Shown: in pieces, positions 5,516 to 52,275 of the stretch
How the letters are laid out: each line of letters opens with the position of its first letter
How positions within the stretch are numbered: the stretch's first letter is position 1
Source: Gemmatimonadales bacterium
GTDB taxonomy: Bacteria; Gemmatimonadota; Gemmatimonadetes; Palauibacterales; Palauibacteraceae
DNA: 58,063 bases
Direction of reading: 5' to 3'
Assembly (NCBI GenBank): GCA_050114915.1
Contig: JASFRN010000003.1
Coordinates: 1 to 58,063 of the forward strand
Notes under the pieces: generated by a model
Databases searched by the model: none
What the model saw: only the letters and a program-made list of their open reading frames with translations
What the model was told of the DNA's origin: nothing
Made by a program: the position numbers and the translations under genes

Positions 5516-7390
5516 CTACGCCGCGTCCGGGGTGGCGAACTGCAATCGGTGCAACCGGGCGTACAGGCCGTCCAGTCGGAGGAGCTCGTCGTGGGTGCCG
5601 GTCTCCCGGATCTCGCCGTGGTGCAGCACCAGGATCCGGTCGGCGTTCTGGATCGTCGACAGCCGGTGCGCGATCACGAGGCTCGTGCGCCCCTGCATGA
5701 GCTCTTCGAGCGCCTCGTCGATCTTCGCCTCGATCTCCGAGTCGACCGAGCTCGTCGCCTCGTCGAGCAGGAGGATCGCGGGGTCGCCGGCGAGCGCGCG
5801 GGCGAAGCTCAGGAGCTGCCGCTCGCCGACGCTGAGGTTCCCGCCCCGCTCGGCGAGCTCCTGGTCGTAGCCATCGGGGAGGCGCCGCACGTATGGATCG
5901 GCCCCCACGCGCTCGGCGGCGGCGCGCACCTGCTCCGGGCCCACGCCCTCGCGGCCGAGGTCGATGTTCCAGCCGGCGCTGCCCGAGAACAAATAGACGT
6001 CCTGGAGCACGAGGCCCATGCTCGTCCGCAGCTCGCCGATCGGAAGGTCGCGGATGTCGATCCCGTCGAGCGTGATGCGCCCTCGCTGCGGCTCGTAGAA
6101 CCGCATCAGCAGGTTGATCAGGGTCGACTTCCCGGCGCCCGTCGCGCCGACGACGGCGACCCGCTCGCCGGGCTCGACCACGAAGTCGATACCCTTGAGC
6201 ACCCACTCCTCGGGGGGCTTACCTTCGGTCCCCGCGGCGTCCGCGGCGCCATCCGGCACGTCGCCCGGGGGCTCCTCGTCCGGCGGCGGCGTCACGTAGC
6301 GGAACCAGACGTCCTCGAACGCGATCCGACCCCTCACCGCGCCGAGGTGCTTCGGCTGCGCCGGCTCGCGGATCTCCGGCTCGCGGTCGAGGAGCCGGAA
6401 CACGCGCTCGGAGCTCGCCATCGCGTTCTGGAGCACGTTGTACTTCTCCGACAGGTCCTGGATCGGCCGGAAGAAGCGCCGCGCGTACTGCAGGAACGCC
6501 GCGATCGTGCCGATCGTCAGCGCCCCGTCCAGCGACCGGGAGCCGCCGTACCAGATGATCAGCGCCAGCGCCACCGCCGAGAGCAGCTCGATGACCGGGA
6601 AGAAGAGCGCGTAGTAAGTGATCGACTTGAGGTGCGCCTGGAGGTGCTCGTCGTTGATGCGGGCGAACTCGCGACGGCTCGGCTCCTGCTGGCCGAACAG
6701 CTGAACGACCGACATCCCGGTGATCCGCTCCTGCAGGTAGGCGTTGATTCGTGCCAGTCGAACCCGAATGTCGCGGTAGGCCTGGCGCACCTTGATCCGG
6801 AACACCATCGCGGCGAGGAACACCACGGGGAGGACCGCGAAGGTCACCAGCGCCAGGCGCCAGTCGAGGAGCAGCATCGCGGTGACGATGGCGCCGATCG
6901 TGAACACGTCGCCGAAGATCGTCACGACGCCCGAGGTGAACATCTCGTTCAGCACCTCGATGTCGCTCGTGACGCGGGTGATCAGCCGCCCCACCGGGTT
7001 CTTGTCGAAGAACTTGAGGTCGAGGCGCTCGAGGTGCCCGAACAGCTCGTCGCGCAGGTCGACCATCACCCGCTGGCCGATCCACGTGGTCAGCAGCGTC
7101 TGCACGTACCCGAGTCCCGCGGCGAGAACCAGCGAGCCGAGGTAGAGGAGGCCGAGCCTCGAGAGGTAGGCCGCGTCGCCCTGCGGGAAGGCCTTGTCGA
7201 TCGCGACCTTCGTCAGCCACGGTCCCACGAGCTCGAGTCCCGAGGCGGCGATCAGCATCAGGATCGCCCCCGTCACGTGCCACTTGTACGGGCGCAGGTA
7301 GGCCAGGAGGCGCTTCATGAGGCGCGAGTCGTACGCCTTTCCGAGCGCTTCCTCTTCCTGCAGGGTGGGGACGGCGGTGTCGCTGGCTAT
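5516..7390 (-). CDS. ABC exporter, fused permease/ATPase (MsbA/MdlB-like); start uncertain
   Basis: Walker A GATGAGKS, signature LSVGERQ, Walker B LLLDEATSSVD, IAHRLST, and a six-TM N-terminal domain. Start placed at ATA 7390 behind a GGAG SD (see findings); the ORF track uses TTG 7456. Confidence 0.9.
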   Translation of the reverse strand: MASDTAVPTLQEEEALGKAYDSRLMKRLLAYLRPYKWHVTGAILMLIAASGLELVGPWLTKVAIDKAFPQGDAAYLSRLGLLYLGSLVLAAGLGYVQTLLTTWIGQRVMVDLRDELFGHLERLDLKFFDKNPVGRLITRVTSDIEVLNEMFTSGVVTIFGDVFTIGAIVTAMLLLDWRLALVTFAVLPVVFLAAMVFRIKVRQAYRDIRVRLARINAYLQERITGMSVVQLFGQQEPSRREFARINDEHLQAHLKSITYYALFFPVIELLSAVALALIIWYGGSRSLDGALTIGTIAAFLQYARRFFRPIQDLSEKYNVLQNAMASSERVFRLLDREPEIREPAQPKHLGAVRGRIAFEDVWFRYVTPPPDEEPPGDVPDGAADAAGTEGKPPEEWVLKGIDFVVEPGERVAVVGATGAGKSTLINLLMRFYEPQRGRITLDGIDIRDLPIGELRTSMGLVLQDVYLFSGSAGWNIDLGREGVGPEQVRAAAERVGADPYVRRLPDGYDQELAERGGNLSVGERQLLSFARALAGDPAILLLDEATSSVDSEIEAKIDEALEELMQGRTSLVIAHRLSTIQNADRILVLHHGEIRETGTHDELLRLDGLYARLHRLQFATPDAA

Positions 7391-32851: not shown

Positions 32852-33955
32852 TCAGGCGCGCGCGAGGCGCGCCAGCTCGTCGATCTGCTCCGGCTTCCCG
32901 AGGACGATGAGCGCGTCATCGGGCTTCAACGTCTGTTCCGGGCCGGGGTTGTAGCGCCACTCCCACTTCGCGGCCGCGATGCCGGCCGAGCGGCCGCCCC
33001 GGCGCCGCGGTTCCCCACCCGGCGTCCCGGCGTCGGCGCCCCCGGCCCGGATGGCGATCACGATGAGGCCGGTGCGCTGGGGGATTCGGGCCTCGGCGAG
33101 GCTCATCCCGGCCAGCGGCGAGTCCGGCGTGATGTCGACCTGCTCGAGTCGCAGGGCCAATCCCTCGCCCCGGGCCATCACGTCGAGGAACGACACCACG
33201 TTCGGGCGCAGCAGCACCGACGCCATCCGCACCCCCCCGGTGACGTTCGGGCTCACCACGTGGTCGGCGCCCGCCACGTAGAGCTTCTGCATGGTCTGCT
33301 CGTCGTAGGCGCGCGCGACGATCGTCAGCTCCGGCTGCAGGTCCCGGGCGCTCAGGCACACGAACAGGTTGTCGGTGTCCGAGCTGAGGCAGGCGACGAG
33401 GCCGCGGGCGGTCTCGATCCGTGACTGGACGAGCGACTCGTCCCGCGTGGCGTCGGCGACCAGGATCAAGGCCTCCTCGTCGACGCGCCGAATCGTCTCG
33501 GCGCGCGCCTCGTCGCGGTCGATGATCACGTAGGGAACGCCGGCGGACTTGAGCTCCGCGACGATCTGGCGGCCGGTGCGGCCGCCTCCGCACACGATTA
33601 CGTGATGTTCGAGCTTCTCGATCCTCTTCATATCGCGCCGGGTTCTGAATACGTGAGCGAGGTCCATCTCGACGATGGCCGAAGTGAGCGCCGCGAACCA
33701 GACGCCCATGAGCGTGATGCCGCCGCCGAGCAGGCCGGCCGCGATGAAACGCGTGGTGTGGGTGAGCGGCCGCACTTCCTCGTAGCCGACGGCGGTGACC
33801 GTGATCACCGTCATCCACAGCGCGTCCGCGGCGGGCCAGCCGCCCACGACGACGAAGGCCAGCGTACCCGCGAGCACCAGCAGCACGAGCGCGGAGAGGA
33901 CCGCGGAGAGACGGTGGAGAAAAGTGCGCCAGGGGCGCGTCGCGGCCGCGAACAA
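32852..33955 (-). CDS. Two-TM potassium channel protein with RCK (TrkA-N and TrkA-C) domains
   Basis: TM-pore (DALWMTVITVTAVGY)-TM, then HVIVCGGGRTG, ADATRDE, NLFVCLSAR and a TrkA-C region. Confidence 0.88.
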   Translation of the reverse strand: MFAAATRPWRTFLHRLSAVLSALVLLVLAGTLAFVVVGGWPAADALWMTVITVTAVGYEEVRPLTHTTRFIAAGLLGGGITLMGVWFAALTSAIVEMDLAHVFRTRRDMKRIEKLEHHVIVCGGGRTGRQIVAELKSAGVPYVIIDRDEARAETIRRVDEEALILVADATRDESLVQSRIETARGLVACLSSDTDNLFVCLSARDLQPELTIVARAYDEQTMQKLYVAGADHVVSPNVTGGVRMASVLLRPNVVSFLDVMARGEGLALRLEQVDITPDSPLAGMSLAEARIPQRTGLIVIAIRAGGADAGTPGGEPRRRGGRSAGIAAAKWEWRYNPGPEQTLKPDDALIVLGKPEQIDELARLARA

Positions 33956-33960
33956 GAGTT

Positions 33961-35550
33961 TCAGCTTTCCCGGTCGCGCCGGACCGGCACGGTCCTCCCG
34001 CGAATCGTCACGCCGTCGAGCTTCCGCATCACGTCGTCCGCCACCTGCGAGTCGATGTCGACCAGCGAGAAGTTGCCCATGATCTCGATCTTGCCGACCT
34101 GGGCGCCCGCGATTCCCGTCTCACCGGTGATCGCGCCGACGATGTCGCCCGGCTTCGCCTCGTCGCGCCGACCGATGCCGAAGTAGAGGCGTGTCCATGC
34201 GGGTCGCGCGCCGCGCGGCACCTCGGACGTCCGGTCGCCACGCCGCCCGCGGTCGCCGGGCGACGCGCCCGAACGGCTCGAGGCGGCCTCCACGTCAGCC
34301 CAGGGGCGAACGGGCGCGCCGTCGCCCTGCCCGCGGGCCCGCAACAGCTCCGAAAGAGCCGCTGCCACCCGCACGGCCCCGAGCTCTTCGAACAGGGGCT
34401 CGAGAATGAGCAGCTCCGACATGAGGTCCGTCGCTTCAACCGCTTCACGGATGCGCATTCGGTAGCGATGCACGGGATCCAGCTCCTCGTGCAGGAGCTG
34501 TCCGGGCAGGGGGCGCACGGTTCGCCCGAGGCGGGCGAGCAGCAGGTGGAGCTGCGCGGCGTGCCTGGGTTCGGCCACCGCGTAACGCGGGCCGTCGCCT
34601 TCGAACGTCCGGCGCAGCGTCTCGAGGCGGAAGGGAAGCCCGACGCGCGCGACGGCGCGCTCTCCCTCGCCCGGCAGCGCGACTGCCACGGTCGATTCGT
34701 CCGTCCCGACGCCGGCGTCGAGACCGGCCACGGCGAGCTCCGCGGCCGCACGGGCCGCATCCGCCGGCGTGCGGAACGCCAGGTCGATGCGGGCGCAGCC
34801 CAGGCGGTCCGCGTCCCGTACGCAACGTTCGAGAGCCTCGATGAAATCGCCGCGAGGCACCAGGGCGCACCGCACGGGCGGCGCGCCCCCGTCGGACGCC
34901 GAGTCGTCCTCGTCGACGGGAGCCACGGCCACCGGCAGGAGTGCTTCGGGCCAGCGGCGCGCGCGCGGCAGCTGGCGATCCACGAGTGCCGTGAAACCGG
35001 GGTCCTCCCGGTCGGAGATCGCGACCTTTCGCGCGTCCTTCGGCAGGGTCTCGAGGATCGGCTCGACGCTGCCCCACTCCTCGAGCGCCATCAGGTCGGC
35101 GACCCGGTCGAGGACGAGCAGCCGGAGTCCCGAGATCGAGTGGCGGCCCGCCCGAATATCGGGCAGCAGCATCGAGGGCCGTCCCACGAGGACGTGCGCG
35201 ACGCGCTCCGCACGGGCGGCATCCGCCGGCCTGTCGTCCTCGGGTACGGCCGTCGGGCAGGCGACCACCAGGCCCTCGGGTCCGACGACCCGCTGCACCG
35301 CCGCCGCGAGACGCCACGCATGGGCCGCTTCCGGCACCAGCACCAGGGCCTGCAGGCTCTCGAGCTCCGGATCGCAGGTCTCCGCGGCCGCGAGAGCGAC
35401 GACGGAGGCCTTGCCCGACCCTTCGCCGGCGAGCAGGGCGACATGATGCCCGCGTCGGAGGGGCGTCTCCGCGGCCTCCAGCACCTCGGGCGTCTCCGTG
35501 AAACCGAGCCGCCGGCAGATTTCTTCGACTTCGAGCTGTCCGTCCGTCAT
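33961..35550 (-). CDS. Degenerate DEAD-box-like protein with a C-terminal DbpA RNA-binding domain
   Basis: Residual GSGK and LLVLD. Well-conserved RLYFGIGRRD...PGDIVGAI...VGKIEI...FSLVD C-terminus as in DeaD/DbpA. GGAG SD. Confidence 0.8.
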   Translation of the reverse strand: MTDGQLEVEEICRRLGFTETPEVLEAAETPLRRGHHVALLAGEGSGKASVVALAAAETCDPELESLQALVLVPEAAHAWRLAAAVQRVVGPEGLVVACPTAVPEDDRPADAARAERVAHVLVGRPSMLLPDIRAGRHSISGLRLLVLDRVADLMALEEWGSVEPILETLPKDARKVAISDREDPGFTALVDRQLPRARRWPEALLPVAVAPVDEDDSASDGGAPPVRCALVPRGDFIEALERCVRDADRLGCARIDLAFRTPADAARAAAELAVAGLDAGVGTDESTVAVALPGEGERAVARVGLPFRLETLRRTFEGDGPRYAVAEPRHAAQLHLLLARLGRTVRPLPGQLLHEELDPVHRYRMRIREAVEATDLMSELLILEPLFEELGAVRVAAALSELLRARGQGDGAPVRPWADVEAASSRSGASPGDRGRRGDRTSEVPRGARPAWTRLYFGIGRRDEAKPGDIVGAITGETGIAGAQVGKIEIMGNFSLVDIDSQVADDVMRKLDGVTIRGRTVPVRRDRES

Positions 35551-35580
35551 CTATTCTCCGATCGGGCCGGCGTCCGCGAA

Positions 35581-37132: not shown

Positions 37133-37432
37133 TCAGCCTTCGAAGCGTCGATGGTGTCCGAGGTCGTAGGCGCGGATCGCCAGGATCTCACGGGGCTGGA
37201 ACCCGATCTCCGACAGCGAGCGTGACTCGTCCTTCACCTGGCGTTCCGCGTACTCGACGTAGTAGTCGGCGGGATCGTCCACGTCGCGTTGCAGCAGCAT
37301 CCGAAGGCCTTCCGTCTTCACGTCGGCGACGGAAGCCGACGGCGGAAAATCCGCCACCTGTTCGAGCCATCGGTCGGGCATCACCAGGCGTACGGTGATC
37401 GCCCCGCCTACGGTGTCGGAGCTCGCGCTCAT
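37133..37432 (-). CDS. Small hypothetical protein, possibly beta-grasp (YukD/EsaB-like)
   Basis: 99 aa with a ubiquitin-like pattern: beta-beta, SVADVK helix, Y-x-V-x-Y, DESRSLSEIG, and a final strand. ATGA overlap with the upstream gene. Confidence 0.65.
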   Translation of the reverse strand: MSASSDTVGGAITVRLVMPDRWLEQVADFPPSASVADVKTEGLRMLLQRDVDDPADYYVEYAERQVKDESRSLSEIGFQPREILAIRAYDLGHHRRFEG

Positions 37433-37689
37433 ACGTGTCCCAGCGTGTAGAGGAAACGCTTGGTCAGATCGGTAACGTCGAGGCCGGCGACCCGGTCGGT
37501 CGACACGCGCACGTTCGTGTGGCCGTGGGCCCTGTCCACCCGGATCTCCGCCGTGCCGATGTCGCCGGTGAGCGTCAGAGCGCCGGCCTCGGGCTCCCGC
37601 ACGGCGAGGCGCGAGTTCGTCGCGAAGAACGTCTTCGCGCGCTCGATCACGTCTTCTGGAGACACCTCGGTCATCACGTGGTATCGCAT
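37429..37689 (-). CDS. Hypothetical protein, 86 aa
   Basis: Helix, four strands, helix pattern with typical codon usage. Coupled to the downstream gene. Confidence 0.7.
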   Translation of the reverse strand: MRYHVMTEVSPEDVIERAKTFFATNSRLAVREPEAGALTLTGDIGTAEIRVDRAHGHTNVRVSTDRVAGLDVTDLTKRFLYTLGHV

Positions 37690-37796
37690 GGCCCGAACTT
37701 CGGAGCCGACGCCGACGGCGTCAACTCCGGGGCGGGTGCCGCGCAACCCACGGACCGCATCTTGTCTTCGCTCCGCCAGTGACGGAATTTGGGGGC

Positions 37797-38957
37797 ATGA
37801 ATCCACAGCCTGAGTTCGGCAGCTTCTTCCTTCCGGGTCCCACCGAAGTCCATCCCGAGGTCCTGGCGGCGATGGCCCGGCCCGTCATCGGACACCGCGG
37901 ACCGGCGATGACGGAGCTGCTGGCCGATGTCGATCCGGGCCTGCGCGCGGTGTTCGGCACCCGGCGGCCCGTCTATATCTCGACCTCTTCCGCCACCGGC
38001 CTGATGGAGACCGCGGTGCGCAACCTCACGCGGCGGCGCATGCTCTGCCTCGTGTGCGGCGCGTTCAGCGCCCGCTTCCATGCGATCGCCGAGAGCTGCG
38101 GCCGACCGGCCGACCGGCTCGACGTCGAGTGGGGACTTCCGAACACGCCGGACCAGCTTCGCGAAGCCCTGCGTGCCGCGGACGGCCGATACGACCTCGT
38201 CACGCTGGTTCACTCCGAGACGTCGACCGGCGTGTTGAATCCGGTCGCCGACATCGCCGCCGTCGTGCGGGAGTTCGACGACGTGCTGCTCGCGGTGGAC
38301 GGGGTGAGCTCGGTGGGCGGGGTGCGGATCGCGTTCGACGAGTGGGGACCCGACTTCATGCTCACGGGGTCGCAAAAAGCGCTGGCGCTACCGCCGGGCC
38401 TCGCCTTCGGGGTCGCGTCCGAGCGGGCGCTCGCACGCGCCGAAGAGATCTCGGACAGGAGCTACTACTTCGACCTGCTCGAGTTCGAACGCAGGGCGGC
38501 CAGCCACTCGACGACCAATACGCCGGCCGTGTCGCTCCTGTTCGCGCTCCAGCATCAACTCCGCCGGATCGGCGCCGAAGGCCTGGCGGTCCGGTTCGCG
38601 CGGCACGAGCGTATGGCGAGCCGGACTTACGAGTGGGTCGACTGGCTCGCGGCCGCGTCCGGCCGGGACTTCTCGGTTCTGGCGCCGGAGGGTTACCGGT
38701 CGCCCACGGTGACCGCCGTTCGGTTGCCCGACGGCTTCAACGGCCCCGAGATCGTCGGCGGGCTGGCGGCGCGCGGAATCACCATCGCGCCGGGCTACGG
38801 GAAGCTGAAGGCGGGTGCGATCCGCATCGGGCACATGGGCGATCACACCCCGGACGAGCTCGAGGCCGTTCTCGCCGCGATCGCCGAGGTGCTCGACGTG
38901 GCGGGACCCGAGGCGACGCCGGCCGGCGTGGGACACGGGGAGGCGTCCGGTGGCTGA
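37797..38957 (+). CDS. Class V PLP aminotransferase (alanine-glyoxylate / serine-pyruvate / SerC-like)
   Basis: LPGPTEV, VHSETSTG, VDGVSS, TGSQKALALPPG and RIGHMG. Confidence 0.93.
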   Translation: MNPQPEFGSFFLPGPTEVHPEVLAAMARPVIGHRGPAMTELLADVDPGLRAVFGTRRPVYISTSSATGLMETAVRNLTRRRMLCLVCGAFSARFHAIAESCGRPADRLDVEWGLPNTPDQLREALRAADGRYDLVTLVHSETSTGVLNPVADIAAVVREFDDVLLAVDGVSSVGGVRIAFDEWGPDFMLTGSQKALALPPGLAFGVASERALARAEEISDRSYYFDLLEFERRAASHSTTNTPAVSLLFALQHQLRRIGAEGLAVRFARHERMASRTYEWVDWLAAASGRDFSVLAPEGYRSPTVTAVRLPDGFNGPEIVGGLAARGITIAPGYGKLKAGAIRIGHMGDHTPDELEAVLAAIAEVLDVAGPEATPAGVGHGEASGG

Positions 38958-45955: not shown

Positions 45956-46009
45956 ATGGCTGATTTCCTTCGTGCACAACGCTTCTCCGCCGTCTCTCGT
46001 CCGGTGTGA
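45956..46009 (+). CDS. Putative 17-aa upstream ORF coupled to sprA
   Basis: MADFLRAQRFSAVSRPV*. TATATT lies 8 nt upstream, and the stop overlaps the sprA GTG (GTGA). Confidence 0.3.
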   Translation: MADFLRAQRFSAVSRPV

Positions 46010-49000
46010 GCGGACCCTCGAGTCCCGGGGCCCCCCTCCGGTGTGCGTACGCCGTCCGCCGTGTCCTTCGGACGGCCGCCCTCCCATTGCTCCTGTGGTC
46101 TCCGGGTCTCGCGCCCGCGCAGGAGGTCGTGCGCCCCGACAGCGTGGCCGTCGACTCCATTCCGTCCGACACCCTCGATGTCGCCCGGGGCGCCGGGGGC
46201 GACTCGGTGATCGTCCTCGAGCCGCTCCAGGCCGAGGTCCCGGACACGGTGAAGGGTCTTCGCGTCGGGCTCGGCCGGATTCCGCTCGTCTGGTCGACCG
46301 ATCTGCGGGTCGCGGTCTCCCAGGCCCAACCCGAGGCGCGACAGCCGGGCGAGCCGGTGTTCGAGTGGCTCGCCGACCGCATCCGGGACGAAGAGGTGAG
46401 GCGGGCGGCGCGGCGGGACACGATGTGGGCCGCGATCCTGGATCTCGACAAGCTCCCGCCGGGCTTCGACGCGCGCCGGTTCTTCGGCCGTGACACCACG
46501 AGTCTCGTCGTCGACTCGGCCGGCCGTCCGGGACCGCGGCGAGGCAACGTGGATCTGCTCCCGGAGGCGCTCGCCGGGGTGGCGGACCTCGATCTCGACA
46601 TCGAGGGGACCGGCCAGATCGGCTCGCAATGGGAGTCGTTCGATCCCTGCACGGTGACCGCCGGCCAGCGCTGCAACCCGAGCGCCATTCCGACCATCAA
46701 GCCCGACTTCCAGCTCAAGGCCAGGGTCCAGGGGCTGATTTCGGAGCGCGTGCACGTGGACGTCGACTTCGACCAGACGCGCGAGTTCGACGCGACGAAC
46801 AACCTGCAGGTCTGGTACGAGGGGAAGCCGGGCGAGATCCTCGAGCGGGCCGACGTGGGCGAGGTCACGCTCGAGATGCCGCGCGGGTCGCGCTTCATCT
46901 CGCGCGGCATCCCGGCCGGCAACTTCGGCCTCAGCGCGCGCGGCCGCCTCGGCCCGCTGACGCTTCGCGGCGTCCTGGCGGAACAGAACGGCAGCGTGAC
47001 CTCTCGAAATCTCACGCTCGACGTGGGTGGCGGCGAGACCGGCGTCCTCCAGGATCTCGAGACGGTGGTGGACGATGCCAGCTACACGAGCGGGCAGTTC
47101 TTCTTCATCGTCGATCCACGCGACCTGGCCGGCTATCCGGACGTCGACGTGACGTCGCTGCAGGCCGCCGACGCCCCGGCGAATCTGCGGCCCGCCTCGG
47201 GAATCAAGCTGTATCGGCACGAGGTGCAGGCGGGGCAGCAGAACATCGAAGACGGGGTGATCCAAGCGCGTGCGATCGCCCGGCGACCCGCCGGCGCGGA
47301 TCCCGCGCTCCCCGACTCGGCCGAGTTCCAGGGCTTCTTCCGTCCGCTGGTCGAGGGCGAGGACTACGTCGTGCACAGCAGCGGCCTGTGGATCGTGCTG
47401 AAGTCGCGCGCCCTCGAAGGCGAAGCGCTCGCCGTGACGTACGTGACGGCGGCCGGCGACACGGTGGGCGACTACAACGCCGAAGCCCTGTTCCGGGAGA
47501 TCGCCAACACCGGCACCGGCCAGCTCCCGGAGCTCGAGCTCCTGCGCGACCCGGCCACGCATCGGCCGGGCGGCGTGACGTGGGAGCGCGAGATGCACCA
47601 GGTCTACCGGATCTCGAGCTCCGACGACGTCGAGGCCGGCAGCGTCCAGCTCACGATCTCGCAGGGTCCGATCGAGTCCGGTCCGATCGTGCGCAACCTC
47701 GACGGGTCGGACTACAGCTTCCTCCAGATCTTCGGGCTCGACGAGCAGCCGACCGACGACAGGCTGGACGGTGGCCGGATCTGGCGTCCCGCCGCCTCCG
47801 GGGGGCAGGGCATCGTGACCGGCAGCTTCCTGGTGTTCCCGACCCTGGAGCCGTTCAAAGATCCGCCGCCGATCGCCGCGCTCGACGGCACGGCCTTCCC
47901 GCTCGCCGGGGGAGACCGGAACGTCGACATGTATGACGAGCCTGTCGATCAGCTGAGGCGCTCCAGCTTCCGCTACCGGCTCAACTTCCAGTACCGCGCG
48001 CGCAGCTCCGGCCGTGCGAGCGAGTTTTCGCTCGGCGCGATCGGGATCCGCGAGGGCAGCGAGCGCGTCACCCTCGACGGACGCGACCTCGAGCGCGGCC
48101 GCGATTACGCGATCAACTACGAGATCGGGCAGCTGGAGATCCTCCGGCCCACCGAGCTGTTCGGCACCAGCCAGAGTCCCGATCTGGAGGTGCAGTTCGA
48201 GCAGAAGCCGATCTTCCAGGTCCAGCCGACCAGCATTCTCGGGCTCACCGGCCAGTACAAGTTCGGCGAGAACAAGACGATCGACTTCGTGGGCCTGTTG
48301 CAGCGCGAGGGGTCGGTCCTGAACCGACCCGAGCTCGGCACCGAGCCCGGGGCCGTGAGCCTGGGCGGGGCCGTGGCCGATTTCGAGTTCCAGCCGGCGG
48401 CCCTGGACCGGTTCGTGAACGCGCTGCCGGGGATCAGCACCGACCTGCCCTCGAGCGTGAACTTCACCGCCGAGGTGGCCGGCTCCCTGCCGACGACGAA
48501 CCGGAAGGGCCTGACCTACGTCGACGATTTCGAGGGCAGCTCACGCCTCCGCATCGCCCTCGGGAGCAACGCGTGGCGGCGCGGCAGCGTCGTCAGCCGC
48601 GCCGACGCGGACGGCGACGACTTCCTGCCCGACGTGCCCGACCTGTCGAACCAGCTCCGGGGCGTATGGCAGTCACAATGGTCCTCCGACGGGCGAATCC
48701 AGGGTCCCCTTCCGACCAGCGAGATCGACCCGCAGATCAACACCCTGAATCCGCAGTCCACCGAGAGCGTGCTCTGGGTGTCGCTCAACGATGCGCCCCA
48801 GGGAGAGAACGGGTGGTTCACCATCACCCAGACCCTGTCGGAGACCGGGATCGACCTGACGGCCACGGAGTTCCTCGAGTTCTACGCCCTCACGCTGAAT
48901 TCCACGTCGTCGCGCATCGCGCTGATCATCGACATCGGTACGGTGTCCGAAGACGCCCTGGTCGCCGACTCGCTCGGCCTCCCGGCCGGCGTCGGCGTGC

Positions 49001-52000
49001 TCGACCAGGAGGTCGATCCTCTCGTCGGCGTGTGGGGCAACCAGGACGACACCGGGCTGTGGGACCAGGCCTGCGTCGCGGAACCCAACGTCACGGCCTA
49101 CCCGCTCAACGATCCGCGCGCCAACTGCACGAACAACAACGGCCGCGAGGACACCGAAGACCTGAACCGCGACAACTTCCTGAACCAGGACGAGCGCTAC
49201 ATCCGGTTCGTCGTGCCGCTGAACGGTCCGTCGCCGTACTTCGACCGCGAGACGTCCGGGAGCTTCCCGTTCCGGCGTTACCGCATCCCGCTGGCGCTGC
49301 CCGACCTGCTCGAGAACGTCACCGCCGGGGCGCGCCAGAACGTGAAGCACATCCGGCTCACCTTCGCGAGCGACCGGGCGGAGACGGTCCTCCTCACCCG
49401 GATGGAGTTCTCCGGGTCGCCGTGGCTGAAGCGCGGCGGCACCGGGAGCGTCGACGGGTTCGTGGGCGACGACCCCGGCACGGCCGGTCAGGTCGCGGTC
49501 GGCCCCATCGCCACCACGGACGGCGGGTACGTGTCGCCGCCGGGCATCTCGGACCAGCAGGCGCAGAGCACCGACGAGATCACGGCCGGTTCGCAGCCGA
49601 TCAACGAGCAATCGCTGCGGCTCCTGTTCGAAGACGTCCCCGCCGGGCAGCGGGTCGAGGTGTACCGGCGCTTCACGGAGCGACCGCGAGACTTCCTCCT
49701 CTATCGACAGATGCGCGCCTGGGCGCTGCCGGTGGAAGGCGACTTCGGACCCGATGCGCCGCTGCGCTTCTACATGCGGCTCGGATTCGACACCGAGAAC
49801 TTCTACCTCTATCGGACCCCGCTGCAGCCGCCGGTGGGCGACTCGCCGCAGCGGGAGGACTGGACCCCGGAGCGGTTCGTCGACTTCGACCGCTGGATCG
49901 AGCTGCGTGCGGTCGCGGAGCAGGAGCTCATCGCGGCCGGCGGGACCCTGCCGCCCGATTCCACGATCACGGTGTGGGACGTGGACGTCTTCCCGGACGG
50001 CGACAGCACGCACGCCGTCGTGGTCAGTGACCGGTCGCGGGCTCCGAACCTGGCGGCGGTGCGCGAGATCGCGATGGGCGTCGAGAACGTCGGGGACATC
50101 ACGGCGGGTCCCGGCGAGCTCTGGATCGACGACCTGCGGCTCGGCGACGCGACGGACCGCGCCGGCAGCGCGGTGCGGGCGGGCGTGGCGGTCGATCTCG
50201 CAGACATCGCGCACTTCGAGACGAACCTCACCCGGCGAAACCCCTTCTTCCGCCAGCTCGGCGGCACGCCGAGCTACGAGGCGCAGAACACGTTCGACTC
50301 ACGGGCGCGCCTGGAGTTCGGGCGGTTCCTCCCGTCCGGCCTCGGGCTCGCGATGCCGGTCGAGTTCCAGCATTTGTCGGACAGTTCCACGCCGTTCTTC
50401 ACGCAGAGCGGCGACGTGCTGGCGGAGCGGATTCCGAATCTCCGCACGCCGTCCAATTCCTCGACGCTGTTCAGCGTAGGGCTGTCGAAACGGACTCCGT
50501 CGGAGAATCCGATTCTGAATGCGACGATCGACGGCCTGACGCTGCGCTACTCCCGCCGCTCGCTGGAGCAGGTTGCGACCCAGAGCGAGACGCAGGGCCG
50601 ATCGTGGAGCGCCTCCGCCACGTGGTCGCGCTCGGTCACCGACCTTTCGTTCCCGATGCTGCCGGGCTTCCTGCGCACCCTGCTTGACGGCCTGCCGGGG
50701 TTCATCTCGAACTCGACGGTCGTCGAGAACCTGAAGAACCTCCGGTTCCGCTACACGCCGCGGCAGCTATCGGCCGGGGCGAGTCTGAACCAGAACCGGA
50801 CGGAGCGCCGCAGGTTCACGAGCTCGGTGCGCGGCGCCGAAACGGCCGTCGCGCCGACGATCGATCGCCAGCACACGCTCGCGCCACGGGCCGGCTTCCA
50901 GCTGCAGCCATTCCCGTCGCTCGTGGCGGGTCTGAACATCAGCGGTGTCCGCGACCTGGTCGATCCCTCTCTCAGGCTCGACGGCCCCGCGGCGGTGCAG
51001 GTGCTCGAGGACCAGCAGAGCGAGTTCCTCGGCCTGGCGATCGGCTGGGAGATGCAGCGCGCGGTCACCACCAACATCAGCTATCAACCCGAGCTCGCGA
51101 GCTGGTTCGACCCGCGGTTCACGCTGAACACGACCTATCAGTCGAGCCGCAATCCCTCGTACGTCACCTCGCTAGCCGAGAACGCGGACACGACCTTCGT
51201 GCGCGACGTTCGCCTCGGGCGCGACTGGACGCTGGACGTCAACGTGAAGCCGGTCGACCTGCTCACCATGCTGGGCGTTCCGCGCGGACCCGAGGCCGAG
51301 GGGCTGGCGGCCGGTGTACGCTCGGTGTGGGATCGGCTGCGTCCCGTTCGCTTTTCGTGGACGCGCACCGTGGCAGCCTCCTACGATCGGCGGGAGCTCG
51401 ACCCCCGGTTCGTCGATCAGCTCGTGTTCAACGGGTTCGAGCGGCTCCGGTTTCTCGAGGAGGGAGACACCGCATCGTCCGCGACCAACCGGCGCCGGTT
51501 CCAGCTCAGCGGCGGCGTGGACCTGCCCGTGAACCTCGCCGCGGAGATCGACTACGGCTGGACCGACAACGACGCGTACAACTTGCGCAGCCGGCGCGGC
51601 ACCTACGAGACGGAGTGGCCGTCCGTGCGGCTGCGCTGGCGGGGCGTCCCGATCCCGGGCTTCCTCGAGGAGCGCATGCGCACGATCACGCTCACCGGCC
51701 AGTGGCGGGTCCGTGACCGGGAGATCCGGACGTCGACGGGCCAGGACCAGGGGATCCAGAGCCTCGACCGCTCGGTGATCGTCACCTTCGTGTTCATGAA
51801 CGGTTTCAATCTCAGCTACGAGCTGACGAACAGCCGCAACGAGCGCACGGACGGCTCCGGGTTCAGCCGCTCCATCCGTAACTCCCACACCGTCCGGGGA
51901 ACGGGCACCGTGCCCCCGCCGGGCCTGCTCTCGTTCGCGAAGAACCCGCTGCGCCTGACGGCCGAGTTCGTCCTGAACGGCAATAGCGACTGCCGCGAGC

Positions 52001-52275
52001 TCGGTGGCACCGGCTTCACGGGGACGACGAATCCCTCGACGCTCGGTGGCGAGGGCTGCGTGGCACACATCGATCAGACCCAGAACTCCGTTCGCCTCGC
52101 GGCGGACACCGACTTCGCGAGCGGTCTCGGCGTCGGCGTACAGTTCCAGTGGGTGCGCCGCGCAAGCGCGGTCGGCACGCAGCAGACGTCCAATCAGTAC
52201 AACTTCGACGTGTTCGGACGCTTCCTGCTTCGCTCGAACACGTCCGACATCCCGCCTCCCGCCGCTACGCGATGA
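46006..52275 (+). CDS. sprA: SprA/Sov-like giant outer-membrane beta-barrel (T9SS translocon homologue)
   Basis: 2089 aa with a signal peptide. SprA-type segments recognised: VDFDQTREFDATNNLQVWYEG-x-x-GEIL...GEVTL, GSERVTLDGR-x-L-x-RG-x-DY-x-INYEIGQL, EDLNRDN-x-LN, GELWIDDLRL. Amphipathic strands throughout. Confidence 0.85.
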   Translation: MSGPSSPGAPLRCAYAVRRVLRTAALPLLLWSPGLAPAQEVVRPDSVAVDSIPSDTLDVARGAGGDSVIVLEPLQAEVPDTVKGLRVGLGRIPLVWSTDLRVAVSQAQPEARQPGEPVFEWLADRIRDEEVRRAARRDTMWAAILDLDKLPPGFDARRFFGRDTTSLVVDSAGRPGPRRGNVDLLPEALAGVADLDLDIEGTGQIGSQWESFDPCTVTAGQRCNPSAIPTIKPDFQLKARVQGLISERVHVDVDFDQTREFDATNNLQVWYEGKPGEILERADVGEVTLEMPRGSRFISRGIPAGNFGLSARGRLGPLTLRGVLAEQNGSVTSRNLTLDVGGGETGVLQDLETVVDDASYTSGQFFFIVDPRDLAGYPDVDVTSLQAADAPANLRPASGIKLYRHEVQAGQQNIEDGVIQARAIARRPAGADPALPDSAEFQGFFRPLVEGEDYVVHSSGLWIVLKSRALEGEALAVTYVTAAGDTVGDYNAEALFREIANTGTGQLPELELLRDPATHRPGGVTWEREMHQVYRISSSDDVEAGSVQLTISQGPIESGPIVRNLDGSDYSFLQIFGLDEQPTDDRLDGGRIWRPAASGGQGIVTGSFLVFPTLEPFKDPPPIAALDGTAFPLAGGDRNVDMYDEPVDQLRRSSFRYRLNFQYRARSSGRASEFSLGAIGIREGSERVTLDGRDLERGRDYAINYEIGQLEILRPTELFGTSQSPDLEVQFEQKPIFQVQPTSILGLTGQYKFGENKTIDFVGLLQREGSVLNRPELGTEPGAVSLGGAVADFEFQPAALDRFVNALPGISTDLPSSVNFTAEVAGSLPTTNRKGLTYVDDFEGSSRLRIALGSNAWRRGSVVSRADADGDDFLPDVPDLSNQLRGVWQSQWSSDGRIQGPLPTSEIDPQINTLNPQSTESVLWVSLNDAPQGENGWFTITQTLSETGIDLTATEFLEFYALTLNSTSSRIALIIDIGTVSEDALVADSLGLPAGVGVLDQEVDPLVGVWGNQDDTGLWDQACVAEPNVTAYPLNDPRANCTNNNGREDTEDLNRDNFLNQDERYIRFVVPLNGPSPYFDRETSGSFPFRRYRIPLALPDLLENVTAGARQNVKHIRLTFASDRAETVLLTRMEFSGSPWLKRGGTGSVDGFVGDDPGTAGQVAVGPIATTDGGYVSPPGISDQQAQSTDEITAGSQPINEQSLRLLFEDVPAGQRVEVYRRFTERPRDFLLYRQMRAWALPVEGDFGPDAPLRFYMRLGFDTENFYLYRTPLQPPVGDSPQREDWTPERFVDFDRWIELRAVAEQELIAAGGTLPPDSTITVWDVDVFPDGDSTHAVVVSDRSRAPNLAAVREIAMGVENVGDITAGPGELWIDDLRLGDATDRAGSAVRAGVAVDLADIAHFETNLTRRNPFFRQLGGTPSYEAQNTFDSRARLEFGRFLPSGLGLAMPVEFQHLSDSSTPFFTQSGDVLAERIPNLRTPSNSSTLFSVGLSKRTPSENPILNATIDGLTLRYSRRSLEQVATQSETQGRSWSASATWSRSVTDLSFPMLPGFLRTLLDGLPGFISNSTVVENLKNLRFRYTPRQLSAGASLNQNRTERRRFTSSVRGAETAVAPTIDRQHTLAPRAGFQLQPFPSLVAGLNISGVRDLVDPSLRLDGPAAVQVLEDQQSEFLGLAIGWEMQRAVTTNISYQPELASWFDPRFTLNTTYQSSRNPSYVTSLAENADTTFVRDVRLGRDWTLDVNVKPVDLLTMLGVPRGPEAEGLAAGVRSVWDRLRPVRFSWTRTVAASYDRRELDPRFVDQLVFNGFERLRFLEEGDTASSATNRRRFQLSGGVDLPVNLAAEIDYGWTDNDAYNLRSRRGTYETEWPSVRLRWRGVPIPGFLEERMRTITLTGQWRVRDREIRTSTGQDQGIQSLDRSVIVTFVFMNGFNLSYELTNSRNERTDGSGFSRSIRNSHTVRGTGTVPPPGLLSFAKNPLRLTAEFVLNGNSDCRELGGTGFTGTTNPSTLGGEGCVAHIDQTQNSVRLAADTDFASGLGVGVQFQWVRRASAVGTQQTSNQYNFDVFGRFLLRSNTSDIPPPAATR

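Follow-up and report, generated by a model that had tools for sequence, protein, structure and literature searches.

A 58,063-nt stretch of a high-GC (about 70%) bacterial chromosome, from a Gemmatimonadales bacterium (contig JASFRN010000003.1; the whole stretch is called the window below), carries at 33961..35550 on the minus strand a gene for a 529-amino-acid (aa) relative of the DEAD-box RNA helicases. The protein, referred to here as the pseudo-helicase, has lost the catalytic motifs of the family, and comparison with its relatives indicates that it represents a phylum-wide bacterial DEAD-box pseudo-helicase descending from the DeaD/CshA/Hera subfamily. The open reading frame (ORF) runs from an ATG to a TGA without interruption, and GGAG, resembling a Shine-Dalgarno sequence and read directly from the DNA, lies 5 nt 5' of the ATG (35556..35559, minus strand), as a preliminary description made from the letters of the window had noted. 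Full-length homologues found in the relative search end alike at both the N- and the C-terminus.

From the N-terminus, and with all coordinates on the minus strand, the protein consists of a degenerate RecA1 (DEAD) domain (aa 1-205, 34936..35550), delimited by Pfam, AlphaFold, Foldseek and substitution rates; a variable, acidic interdomain linker (aa 206-224, 34879..34935), with a predicted local distance difference test score (pLDDT) of about 53; a trimmed and degenerate RecA2 domain (aa 225-350, 34501..34878), assigned from structure matches and devoid of motifs IV, V and VI; a helical segment homologous to the DeaD-type dimerisation domain (aa 355-410, 34321..34488), assigned by hhalign and by Pfam in a sister clade; a disordered linker (aa 411-450, 34201..34320; pLDDT below 50 at aa 426-449); and an RRM-like, DbpA-type RNA-binding domain (RBD; aa 451-527, 33970..34200). 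The disordered linker opens with a conserved (R)PWADVEAAS, similar to the 'IPDVE' of canonical relatives, and continues as a variable Arg/Gly/Ser-rich stretch. Pfam DbpA (PF03880) matches aa 454-524 with 83.3 bits against a cut-off of 25.6. The Pfam DEAD match is weak (39.9 bits, aa 30-179), and Helicase_C (PF00271) gave no match at E <= 1 either in the pseudo-helicase or in the relatives listed. The NCBIfam equivalog models for DbpA (NF008744, 85.6 bits against a cut-off of 524), DeaD (NF008642, 53.7 against 989) and CshA (NF053631, 25.2 against 646) all score far below threshold.

The positions of the motifs were set by residue-level alignment to E. coli DbpA, E. coli DeaD and CshA, and residue frequencies were counted in 116 aligned family sequences. 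In a DEAD-box helicase the Q motif reads adenine, the Lys and Thr of motif I bind phosphate and Mg, the Glu of motif II activates water, motif III links the binding of ATP to that of RNA, and the arginines of motif VI contact the gamma-phosphate. The degenerate strings listed in the preliminary description all fall at the canonical motif positions of E. coli DbpA and DeaD. The TPVQ of the Q motif is PEVL in the pseudo-helicase (remnant GFTETPEVL, aa 16-24, 35479..35505), with Leu24 in place of the Gln, and Leu occupies that position in 109 of the 116 relatives. Motif I reads AGEGSGKA instead of AKTGSGKT (aa 41-48, 35407..35430); the Lys is kept and the Ser/Thr is Ala, which leaves no complete Walker A sequence. 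Across the family position 48 is never Ser or Thr (Glu in 67/116), and position 47 is Lys in 44 sequences, Val in 40, Glu in 10, Arg in 9 and otherwise other residues, including Ile and Leu. PTRELA of motif Ia is replaced by PEAAHA (aa 73-78), and TPGR of motif Ib by RPSM, within RPSML (aa 124-128), with loss of the Arg. Motif II is DRVA, in DRVAD (aa 148-152, 35095..35109), rather than DEAD: the first Asp, D148, is retained, as it is in 113/116 family members, and the catalytic Glu is Arg, a residue found there in 12/116 sequences, Gly being the commonest (94/116). Motif III is SDR instead of SAT (aa 179-181, 35008..35016), and HRIGRTAR of motif VI aligns with RTFEGDGP, so that HRxGRxGR is absent.

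What is left of the active site is Gly44-Ser45-Gly46, Lys47 and Asp148, ie the motifs are eroded rather than erased; G44 and G46, and likewise S45, are near-invariant across the family. As far as sequence can tell, the pseudo-helicase fails to qualify as a DEAD-box helicase at every catalytic motif. The proposal that it is ATPase-dead is strongly favoured by this family-wide loss of catalytic residues: the protein is very probably without ATP hydrolysis, and ATP binding has very probably been lost in this lineage as well. Conserved positions of a new kind stand beside the eroded ones. In the 116 sequences R33-G-H35-H36, E158-W159-x-S-V-E-P and R192-Q-L-P-R196-A-R-R-W200-P201 are invariant or nearly so, as are ELLxLEP385, AAxLS400, W417-x-D-x-E421 and most of the RBD. 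R196, W200 and P201, in the motif RQLPRARRWPE that ends RecA1 (aa 192-202, 34945..34977), are invariant within the window's clade. An R-R-A core, RG[H/N/G][H/N], LLxLEPL and AAxxxLLR are derived features common to all the Gemmatimonadota clades and absent from canonical relatives.

These remnants bear on whether the protein is still an enzyme, or a switch, in which ATP or some other phosphate ligand would be held by the GSGK loop and Asp148 and either hydrolysed in a non-canonical way or used, through binding alone, to change conformation. We regard this as very improbable. It draws on the near-invariance of G44, S45 and G46, on the retention of D148, on the conservation of Lys47 in the window's sub-clade and on a sister clade of about 480 aa that keeps both the Q motif and GSGKT (15/15 loci examined), suggesting that nucleotide binding persists there. 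The window's clade, however, is without the Gln that reads adenine, the Ser/Thr that binds Mg, the catalytic Glu, SAT and both arginines of motif VI; Lys47 has given way to Val, Glu, Arg, Ile or Leu in 72/116 otherwise conserved relatives; and RecA2 is trimmed and has lost all its ATP-site residues. Residual nucleotide binding appears unlikely for the window's clade and plausible for the GSGKT-keeping clade.

The ratio of non-synonymous to synonymous substitution rates (dN/dS) was estimated pairwise by the Nei-Gojobori method (NG86) between the pseudo-helicase gene and four orthologues fetched as DNA. Whole-gene values were 0.14-0.24 across the four pairs and 0.18 in the closest, unsaturated pair (dS 0.40). 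By domain, the closest pair gave 0.10 for RecA1 (range 0.10-0.20), 0.21 for RecA2 (0.14-0.40), 0.105 for the helical segment (0.10-0.21) and 0.11 for the RBD (0.06-0.11); the interdomain linker evolves about neutrally (from about 0.4 to above 1). Constraint on the degenerate core is thus about as strong as on the RBD. The protein is a pseudoenzyme and not the product of a pseudogene. That the gene looks selected rather than decaying, as first described, is confirmed by these ratios and by intact, full-length orthologues numbering in the hundreds. Decay into a pseudogene, or an artefact of annotation, would fit the loss of the catalytic motifs and the disagreement among database names, but its probability is negligible, since the frame is uninterrupted here and at each of the full-length loci inspected, dN/dS is far under 1 in all folded domains, the structure is predicted with high confidence and the gene is kept phylum-wide at a conserved position. 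The pseudogene reading was rejected on the intact frames, the dN/dS values and the single degenerate clade in the tree described below. A retained fold, lost catalytic motifs and purifying selection together make the protein a pseudohelicase, its inactivity being predicted.

An AlphaFold model built from the 116 family sequences had a mean pLDDT of 86. Confidence exceeds 93 for most of aa 1-200 in RecA1 (68-74 at aa 101-120), exceeds 91 for RecA2 at aa 226-350 (95 when that domain is folded alone), lies at 65-84 for the three helices of the dimerisation segment (aa 359-407) and reaches 93-96 in the RBD (aa 452-525). In Foldseek the best match of the full model was full-length DbpA (7pli, E 1e-19), followed by CshA (5ivl), a Methanocaldococcus jannaschii DEAD protein and eIF4A; the alignments span both core domains, and the predicted structure accordingly contains two tandem RecA-like domains. 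RecA1 matched the N-terminal domains of eIF4A and DeaD (target-normalised TM-score 0.79-0.84). RecA2 alone, which has about 126 aa against 156 in canonical relatives (some 30 residues fewer) and is acidic, matched the RecA2 domains of Hera, DDX6 and CshA (query-normalised TM-score 0.60-0.72, probability >=0.97). Its top structural match was the Hera fragment comprising RecA2 and the dimerisation domain (3eaq/3ear), with modest E-values (best 3.6e-3). A sequence profile of the RecA2 segment found no significant match among PDB sequences, the sole hint being a sub-threshold, motif-IV-like match to domain 2 of RecQ. Because PDB sequence profiles gave nothing significant, it is fold and profile-profile comparison that show the homology of RecA2 and of the helical segment.

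The helical segment, in which ELLxLEPL and AAALSxLLR are conserved, aligns with the dimerisation region of canonical relatives and E. coli DeaD (hhalign probability 85.5%, E 5.7e-6). The Pfam model DeaD_dimer (PF25399, cut-off 23 bits), scored at the same position, gave 64.7 bits for E. coli DeaD, 37.7 for a canonical relative (L063), 27.3 and 29.4 for two members of a sister clade (P0262 and P0289), and 22.0, just under the cut-off, for a member of the ~480-aa clade (L065). The 'DeaD-like helical segment' of the preliminary description is thus real, on the strength of the profile alignment and of the two sister-clade members that pass the Pfam threshold. A DeaD-type dimerisation domain between core and RBD places the protein in that subfamily, and dimerisation itself is predicted only. 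As E. coli DbpA has no such segment, the architecture is that of DeaD/CsdA-CshA-Hera and not that of DbpA; a DbpA-type origin was rejected on this evidence and a DeaD-type origin favoured. The dimeric helicases E. coli DeaD/CsdA, Geobacillus/Bacillus CshA and Thermus thermophilus Hera have their domains in the same order as the pseudo-helicase: RecA1, RecA2, DeaD_dimer-type segment, linker and DbpA RBD. Unlike them, it has lost motifs Q, I, II, III and VI and the RNA motifs of RecA2, its RecA2 is about 30 aa shorter, acidic and without a Helicase_C match, and it has gained the family-specific motifs. The Arg/Gly-rich C-terminal tail of E. coli DeaD is also missing.

The RBD is the best-conserved part of the protein, with 51% identity between the window's clade and canonical relatives against 16-23% in the other domains. 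The preliminary description had called the DbpA domain intact; its Pfam score, and RNA-contact positions that are invariant or nearly so, agree. Contact residues were taken from the comparison of Hera and YxiN in PMC3695512 and from PMC8536315. T475 occupies the position of DbpA T405, which belongs to the hairpin-92 (HP92) site (PMC8536315), and is invariant in 57/57 Gemmatimonadota sequences. The [I/V]-G-x-[I/V] main-chain motif that reads guanine in the Hera and YxiN complexes (PMC3695512) is kept as V485-G486-K487-I488, and G423, T424 and K427 of YxiN (PMC3695512) correspond to G472, A473 and G476. G472, A473, T475, G476 and G486, all invariant or nearly so, coincide with positions at which YxiN, DbpA and Hera contact RNA. 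Helix alpha-1 carries GAITGE, as in canonical relatives and close to the GALTGD of E. coli DbpA, and the longer motif DLVGAITGE is common to the pseudo-helicase and its closest canonical sequences. These residues suggest that the pseudo-helicase itself probably binds RNA. The core, by contrast with the RBD, has lost its RNA-binding elements, namely the GG doublet, the Arg of motif Ib and motifs IV and V of RecA2. The basic patch R92/R96/K102 of DbpA is Q86/G90/V95 here, at positions that vary across the family, and the mean net charge of RecA2 is -4.6 against +3.0 in canonical relatives.

E. coli DbpA and B. subtilis YxiN are monomeric helicases specific for hairpin 92 of 23S rRNA. The RBD of the pseudo-helicase finds its best match in sequence and structure in DbpA (7pli) and keeps the hairpin-92-site Thr and IGxI. 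DbpA and YxiN have no dimerisation segment, however; DbpA is an active ATPase, unlike the predicted-inactive pseudo-helicase, and the DbpA patch needed for hairpin-92-stimulated closure is not conserved.

A word-indexed search returned 156 relatives; among the 120 listed, identity to the pseudo-helicase was 39-87%, nearly all were full length, and the named sources were Gemmatimonadota. A scan of one genome per species gave 515 relatives with the RBD pattern, and the best 80 of these 515 loci were analysed. All came from separate genomes, except for one gene split over two contigs, and 73 were from Gemmatimonadota, including Palauibacter, Longimicrobiales, Gemmatimonadaceae, Kutchimonas and Carthagonibacter. 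DEAD, SAT and motif VI are missing at the aligned positions in 73/73 of the Gemmatimonadota loci scored, while the remaining seven hits, from Planctomycetota, Acidobacteriota and Actinomycetota, are fully canonical (GTGKT, DEAD, SAT, HRIGRxGR). An exhaustive profile search of 1.84 billion representatives (50% identity) gave 367 clusters at E <= 1e-30. Among the top 150, which were examined, motif VI is absent in 138/140 new members and two are canonical, one of them from Myxococcota. The closest canonical sequences, of about 570-600 aa, come from Planctomycetota, Acidobacteriota, Actinomycetota and Myxococcota and have the helical segment as well as the RBD motif in common with the pseudo-helicase.

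In a neighbour-joining tree (Poisson correction, 100 bootstraps) the degenerate Gemmatimonadota proteins are monophyletic (100/100) and sister to the canonical ~570-600-aa helicases of other phyla (83/100). Across the Gemmatimonadota loci scored the family genes are single-copy positional orthologues. Read most simply, catalysis was lost once, in the DeaD-type orthologue ancestral to the sampled lineages, after which the gene was inherited vertically and motifs no longer needed went on eroding in a lineage-specific way. Erosion is graded. In all 15 loci examined the ~480-aa clade keeps the Q motif (TALQ/TAFQ) and Walker A (G[S/C]GKT, as ASAGSGKT) and is without DEAD (DGAS instead), SAT and motif VI; it may represent a nucleotide-binding, non-hydrolysing intermediate state. 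These loci are L029, L033, L034, L036, L038, L040, L041 and L047, with L049, L050, L053, L056, L059, L062 and L065. Proteins of Gemmatimonadaceae type, which have TPLQ, AGPGSGTL, DQAD and ALP, have so far retained (S)YDVP. Motif erosion is most derived in the window's clade.

Two loci depart from the general pattern. L070 (CP070823.1, a complete 3.04-Mb chromosome from a metagenome-assembled genome, MAG) has a naturally short, 262-aa form at about 6001-6790. Its match to the family profile is confined to the profile's C-terminal half, where it covers some of RecA2 as well as the dimerisation segment and the RBD; the N-terminal half was not found in any frame within 3 kb. Lopez-Ramirez et al. 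2011 (PMC3093544) remarked in passing, with data not shown, that outside the DEAD-Helicase_C context the DbpA-RBD occurs only in three Treponema species and Gemmatimonas aurantiaca, 'in small genes'; the short form may correspond to the small genes of the latter. L008 (CAXMRU010000139.1), from a MAG labelled Akkermansiaceae, is a contig on which a gene belonging to the window's clade (45% identity) is accompanied by the entire Gemmatimonadota syntenic block, and it is probably mis-binned.

The preliminary description had also suggested that the protein heterodimerises with an intact DeaD of the same genome. As a dead partner it would pair, through the DeaD-type domain, with an active helicase of DeaD/CshA type and tune or target its activity. 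The dimerisation segment is present and Gemmatimonadota do encode active DEAD-box helicases: in 11 loci of Gemmatimonadaceae type a canonical RhlE-like gene lies about 3.3 kb upstream on the opposite strand. Its products, of about 430 aa with GTGKT, DEAD, SAT and HRIGRTGR, are nevertheless without a DbpA or dimerisation domain. No canonical helicase gene was seen in the 58-kb window, all 73 Gemmatimonadota loci scored are non-canonical, and the two canonical proteins in the top-150 representatives include one from Myxococcota. Because a canonical helicase with the dimerisation domain was not seen in the phylum, within the 80 best loci out of 515 genome hits and the 150 top-ranked representatives on which that absence rests, heterodimerisation is disfavoured, and we think it improbable. 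Monophyly and positional orthology point the same way: on these grounds the pseudo-helicase appears to be the DeaD orthologue of the phylum itself, turned catalytically dead, and not an inactive paralogue beside an active one. The RhlE-like genes were found at L035, L039, L042, L044, L045, L048, L052, L057, L068, L074 and L080, with a fructosamine-kinase-like gene and a class I/II aminotransferase gene between them and the pseudo-helicase.

The reading we favour, with a probability of roughly 0.6, is that the Gemmatimonadota orthologue of DeaD/CsdA-CshA-Hera lost ATP hydrolysis before the sampled lineages diverged and was kept as a folded, ATP-independent RNA binder anchored by its RBD. In such a protein the intact C-terminal domain would bind structured RNA independently of ATP, via the surface used by DbpA, YxiN and Hera. 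By analogy with DbpA, YxiN, DeaD and Hera the RNA is most likely 23S rRNA, and the likeliest site would lie within or close to the H89-H93 / hairpin-92 region, in 50S subunits under assembly. The DeaD-type segment would probably make the protein a homodimer, whose two RBDs would let it serve as a bivalent tether or chaperone for RNA. The remodelled two-RecA core would no longer clamp single-stranded RNA in a way that depends on ATP and could act as a rigid scaffold, whose new motifs RGHH, EWxSVEPIL and RQLPRARRWPE presumably serve a new partner. Release of the RNA would not be driven by ATP hydrolysis, and would therefore have to rest on competition or on RNA folding.

Several observations weigh against this reading. 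The gene neighbourhood contains no ribosome or RNA genes, with transporters and a K+ channel instead. The RecA_N patch by which DbpA contacts the hairpin-92 stem is absent, and specificity for hairpin 92 should therefore not be assumed; the RBD is moreover less basic (+1 to +2) than that of E. coli DbpA (+8). The pseudo-helicase's own dimerisation segment is below the PF25399 threshold and modelled with moderate pLDDT, and its profile (aa 355-410) gave no significant match to PDB sequences. The persistence of Lys47 and the GSG loop in the window's sub-clade may allow residual phosphate or nucleotide binding. Long-branch attraction could inflate the monophyly of fast-evolving sequences in a neighbour-joining tree. 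Lastly, the runs that hold the gene are DNA metagenomes only, from wetland, mangrove and marine sediment, with no RNA-seq run among those listed.

The same ancestry admits a role away from the ribosome. CshA pairs with RNase Y, and CsdA and RhlB with RNase E, in degradosomes. The pseudo-helicase might similarly be an adaptor in RNA decay or on mRNA, either a degradosome-like scaffold or a cold-shock mRNA-binding factor, with the RBD providing general RNA binding and the remodelled core the protein contacts. We hold this to be unlikely, though the least unlikely of the rival explanations considered here. Its DeaD/CshA/Hera relatives act in degradosomes and in general RNA chaperoning, and the new conserved core surfaces, being non-basic, suggest protein rather than RNA contacts. 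Hera has been described as a general RNA binder (PMC7566566, PMC3695512). In none of the clades, however, is a gene for an RNase or for RNA metabolism linked, and the RBD helix GAITGE is closest to the GALTGD of the hairpin-92-specific E. coli DbpA; present evidence does not separate such an adaptor from the rRNA model.

The closest conceptual counterpart is Utp25/Def, a pseudohelicase of the eukaryotic small-subunit processome, which likewise keeps a selected two-RecA DEAD-box fold with motifs that are degenerate or dispensable (PMC9539457). Utp25 acts in ribosome assembly and the dispensability of its motifs has been shown (PMC9539457); for the pseudo-helicase such a role is a proposal. The two differ in origin, the bacterial protein having arisen independently from a DeaD-type helicase, and Utp25 lacks the DbpA RBD and the dimerisation segment. 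A more far-reaching proposal, which we offer only tentatively, is that the whole phylum has exchanged a DeaD-type helicase for an ATP-independent, dimeric, RBD-anchored factor whose RecA core gained a binding function via RGHH, EWxSVEPIL and RQLPRARRWPE; such a factor would be a bacterial counterpart of Utp25 with a structural part in ribosome assembly or RNA quality, possibly coupled to K+ status by way of the putatively co-transcribed RCK channel described below.

The engineered R331A mutant of DbpA (PMC8536315, PMC4911913) resembles the pseudo-helicase in being an RBD-anchored DEAD-box protein unable to hydrolyse ATP. On pre-50S particles it binds for long periods, a 45S intermediate accumulates and maturation is blocked (PMC8536315, PMC4911913). 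The mutant is dominant negative because it still binds ATP and RNA and locks closed. The pseudo-helicase is without the residues for ATP binding and closure and should therefore bind reversibly via the RBD alone; by this comparison it need not be toxic. In Deinococcus radiodurans PriA (PMC4504706) a bacterial superfamily 2 (SF2) orthologue has also lost its helicase motifs and been retained, but it belongs to another SF2 family, acts in the restart of DNA replication and is a case from one lineage rather than phylum-wide.

Full-text literature searches returned no paper describing the family and no published bacterial family of DEAD-box pseudo-helicases; the sole trace of the family was the remark of Lopez-Ramirez et al. 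2011 cited above, and the pseudohelicases found documented were eukaryotic Utp25 and D. radiodurans PriA. In databases the relatives are named 'DbpA RNA binding domain-containing protein', 'DEAD/DEAH box helicase' or 'ATP-dependent RNA helicase DeaD', and the helicase names imply an activity that the family sequences cannot support. Over 1000 Gemmatimonadota proteins are listed, many with a helicase label, that almost certainly do not hydrolyse ATP, and recognition of the family corrects their annotation. DbpA knock-outs have no phenotype, and one ATPase-dead mutant is dominant negative (PMC8536315). The pseudo-helicase offers a natural, long-running separation of the ATP-independent functions (tethering, chaperoning, scaffolding) from ATP-driven unwinding. 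Its graded clades, some with the Q motif and GSGKT and others with NYDVP-like motifs, give a stepwise picture of the passage from enzyme to pseudoenzyme, and the new invariant motifs point to an interaction worth finding.

The gene lies in a conserved neighbourhood, in which Aminotran_5, a pair of small ORFs and a Na/Ala symporter are followed by the pseudo-helicase and then by a K+ channel, PspA and an HMA P-type ATPase, and parts of this syntenic block are recognisable between clades that share only about 30% identity. The channel gene, of TrkA/RCK type (Ion_trans_2, TrkA_N and TrkA_C by Pfam; 32852..33955, minus strand, context only), begins 5 nt after the stop codon of the pseudo-helicase on the same strand. 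The pseudo-helicase might accordingly be a cytoplasmic partner or regulator of the channel, or the pair might couple K+ homeostasis to the status of RNA or ribosomes. The gap is 3-8 bp in the window, L082 and L085-L087, and most loci of both the window's clade and the Palauibacter clade have the channel gene downstream, as do some Gemmatimonadaceae-type loci at about 30% identity. It is missing downstream, however, in L002, L019, L021, L088 and two whole clades (the ~480-aa clade and Longimicrobiales), and in L083 the two are separated by an inserted HU gene. The adjacency could reflect an operon or simply deep synteny; as the whole block, with symporter, PspA, P-type ATPase and aminotransferase, is syntenic, it may be inheritance only. 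We know of no mechanism linking DbpA-domain proteins to RCK channels, and a functional link to the channel is highly improbable, more so than any explanation above except decay. The channel is also found downstream in L004-L017, L025-L032, L035, L042, L044 and L064.

A scan for sigma-70 promoters found none. A terminator-like hairpin, GCGCC-CCT-GGCGC followed by ACTTTTCTCC (window 33926-33938, minus strand), lies 23 nt past the pseudo-helicase stop, within the first codons of the called channel ORF; such sites are no more frequent than chance (one against 0.7 expected). PADLOC indicated no relation of the pseudo-helicase or its neighbours to defence systems, and Rfam (gathering thresholds) and ARAGORN found nothing in the window. 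The two small ORFs between the Na/Ala symporter and Aminotran_5 overlap (37133-37432 and 37429-37806, minus strand; 99 and 125 aa), have no Pfam or PADLOC match and are syntenic in all loci of the window's clade with gene calls. Housekeeping genes in the window include uvrA, gyrA, ccmF, a serA-like gene, a ThiF/MoeB-like gene and a PilB-type ATPase. A 2089-aa ORF at 46006-52275 on the plus strand has a weak match, at aa 1174-1465, to SprA_N, a domain of motility and secretion of the type IX secretion system kind.

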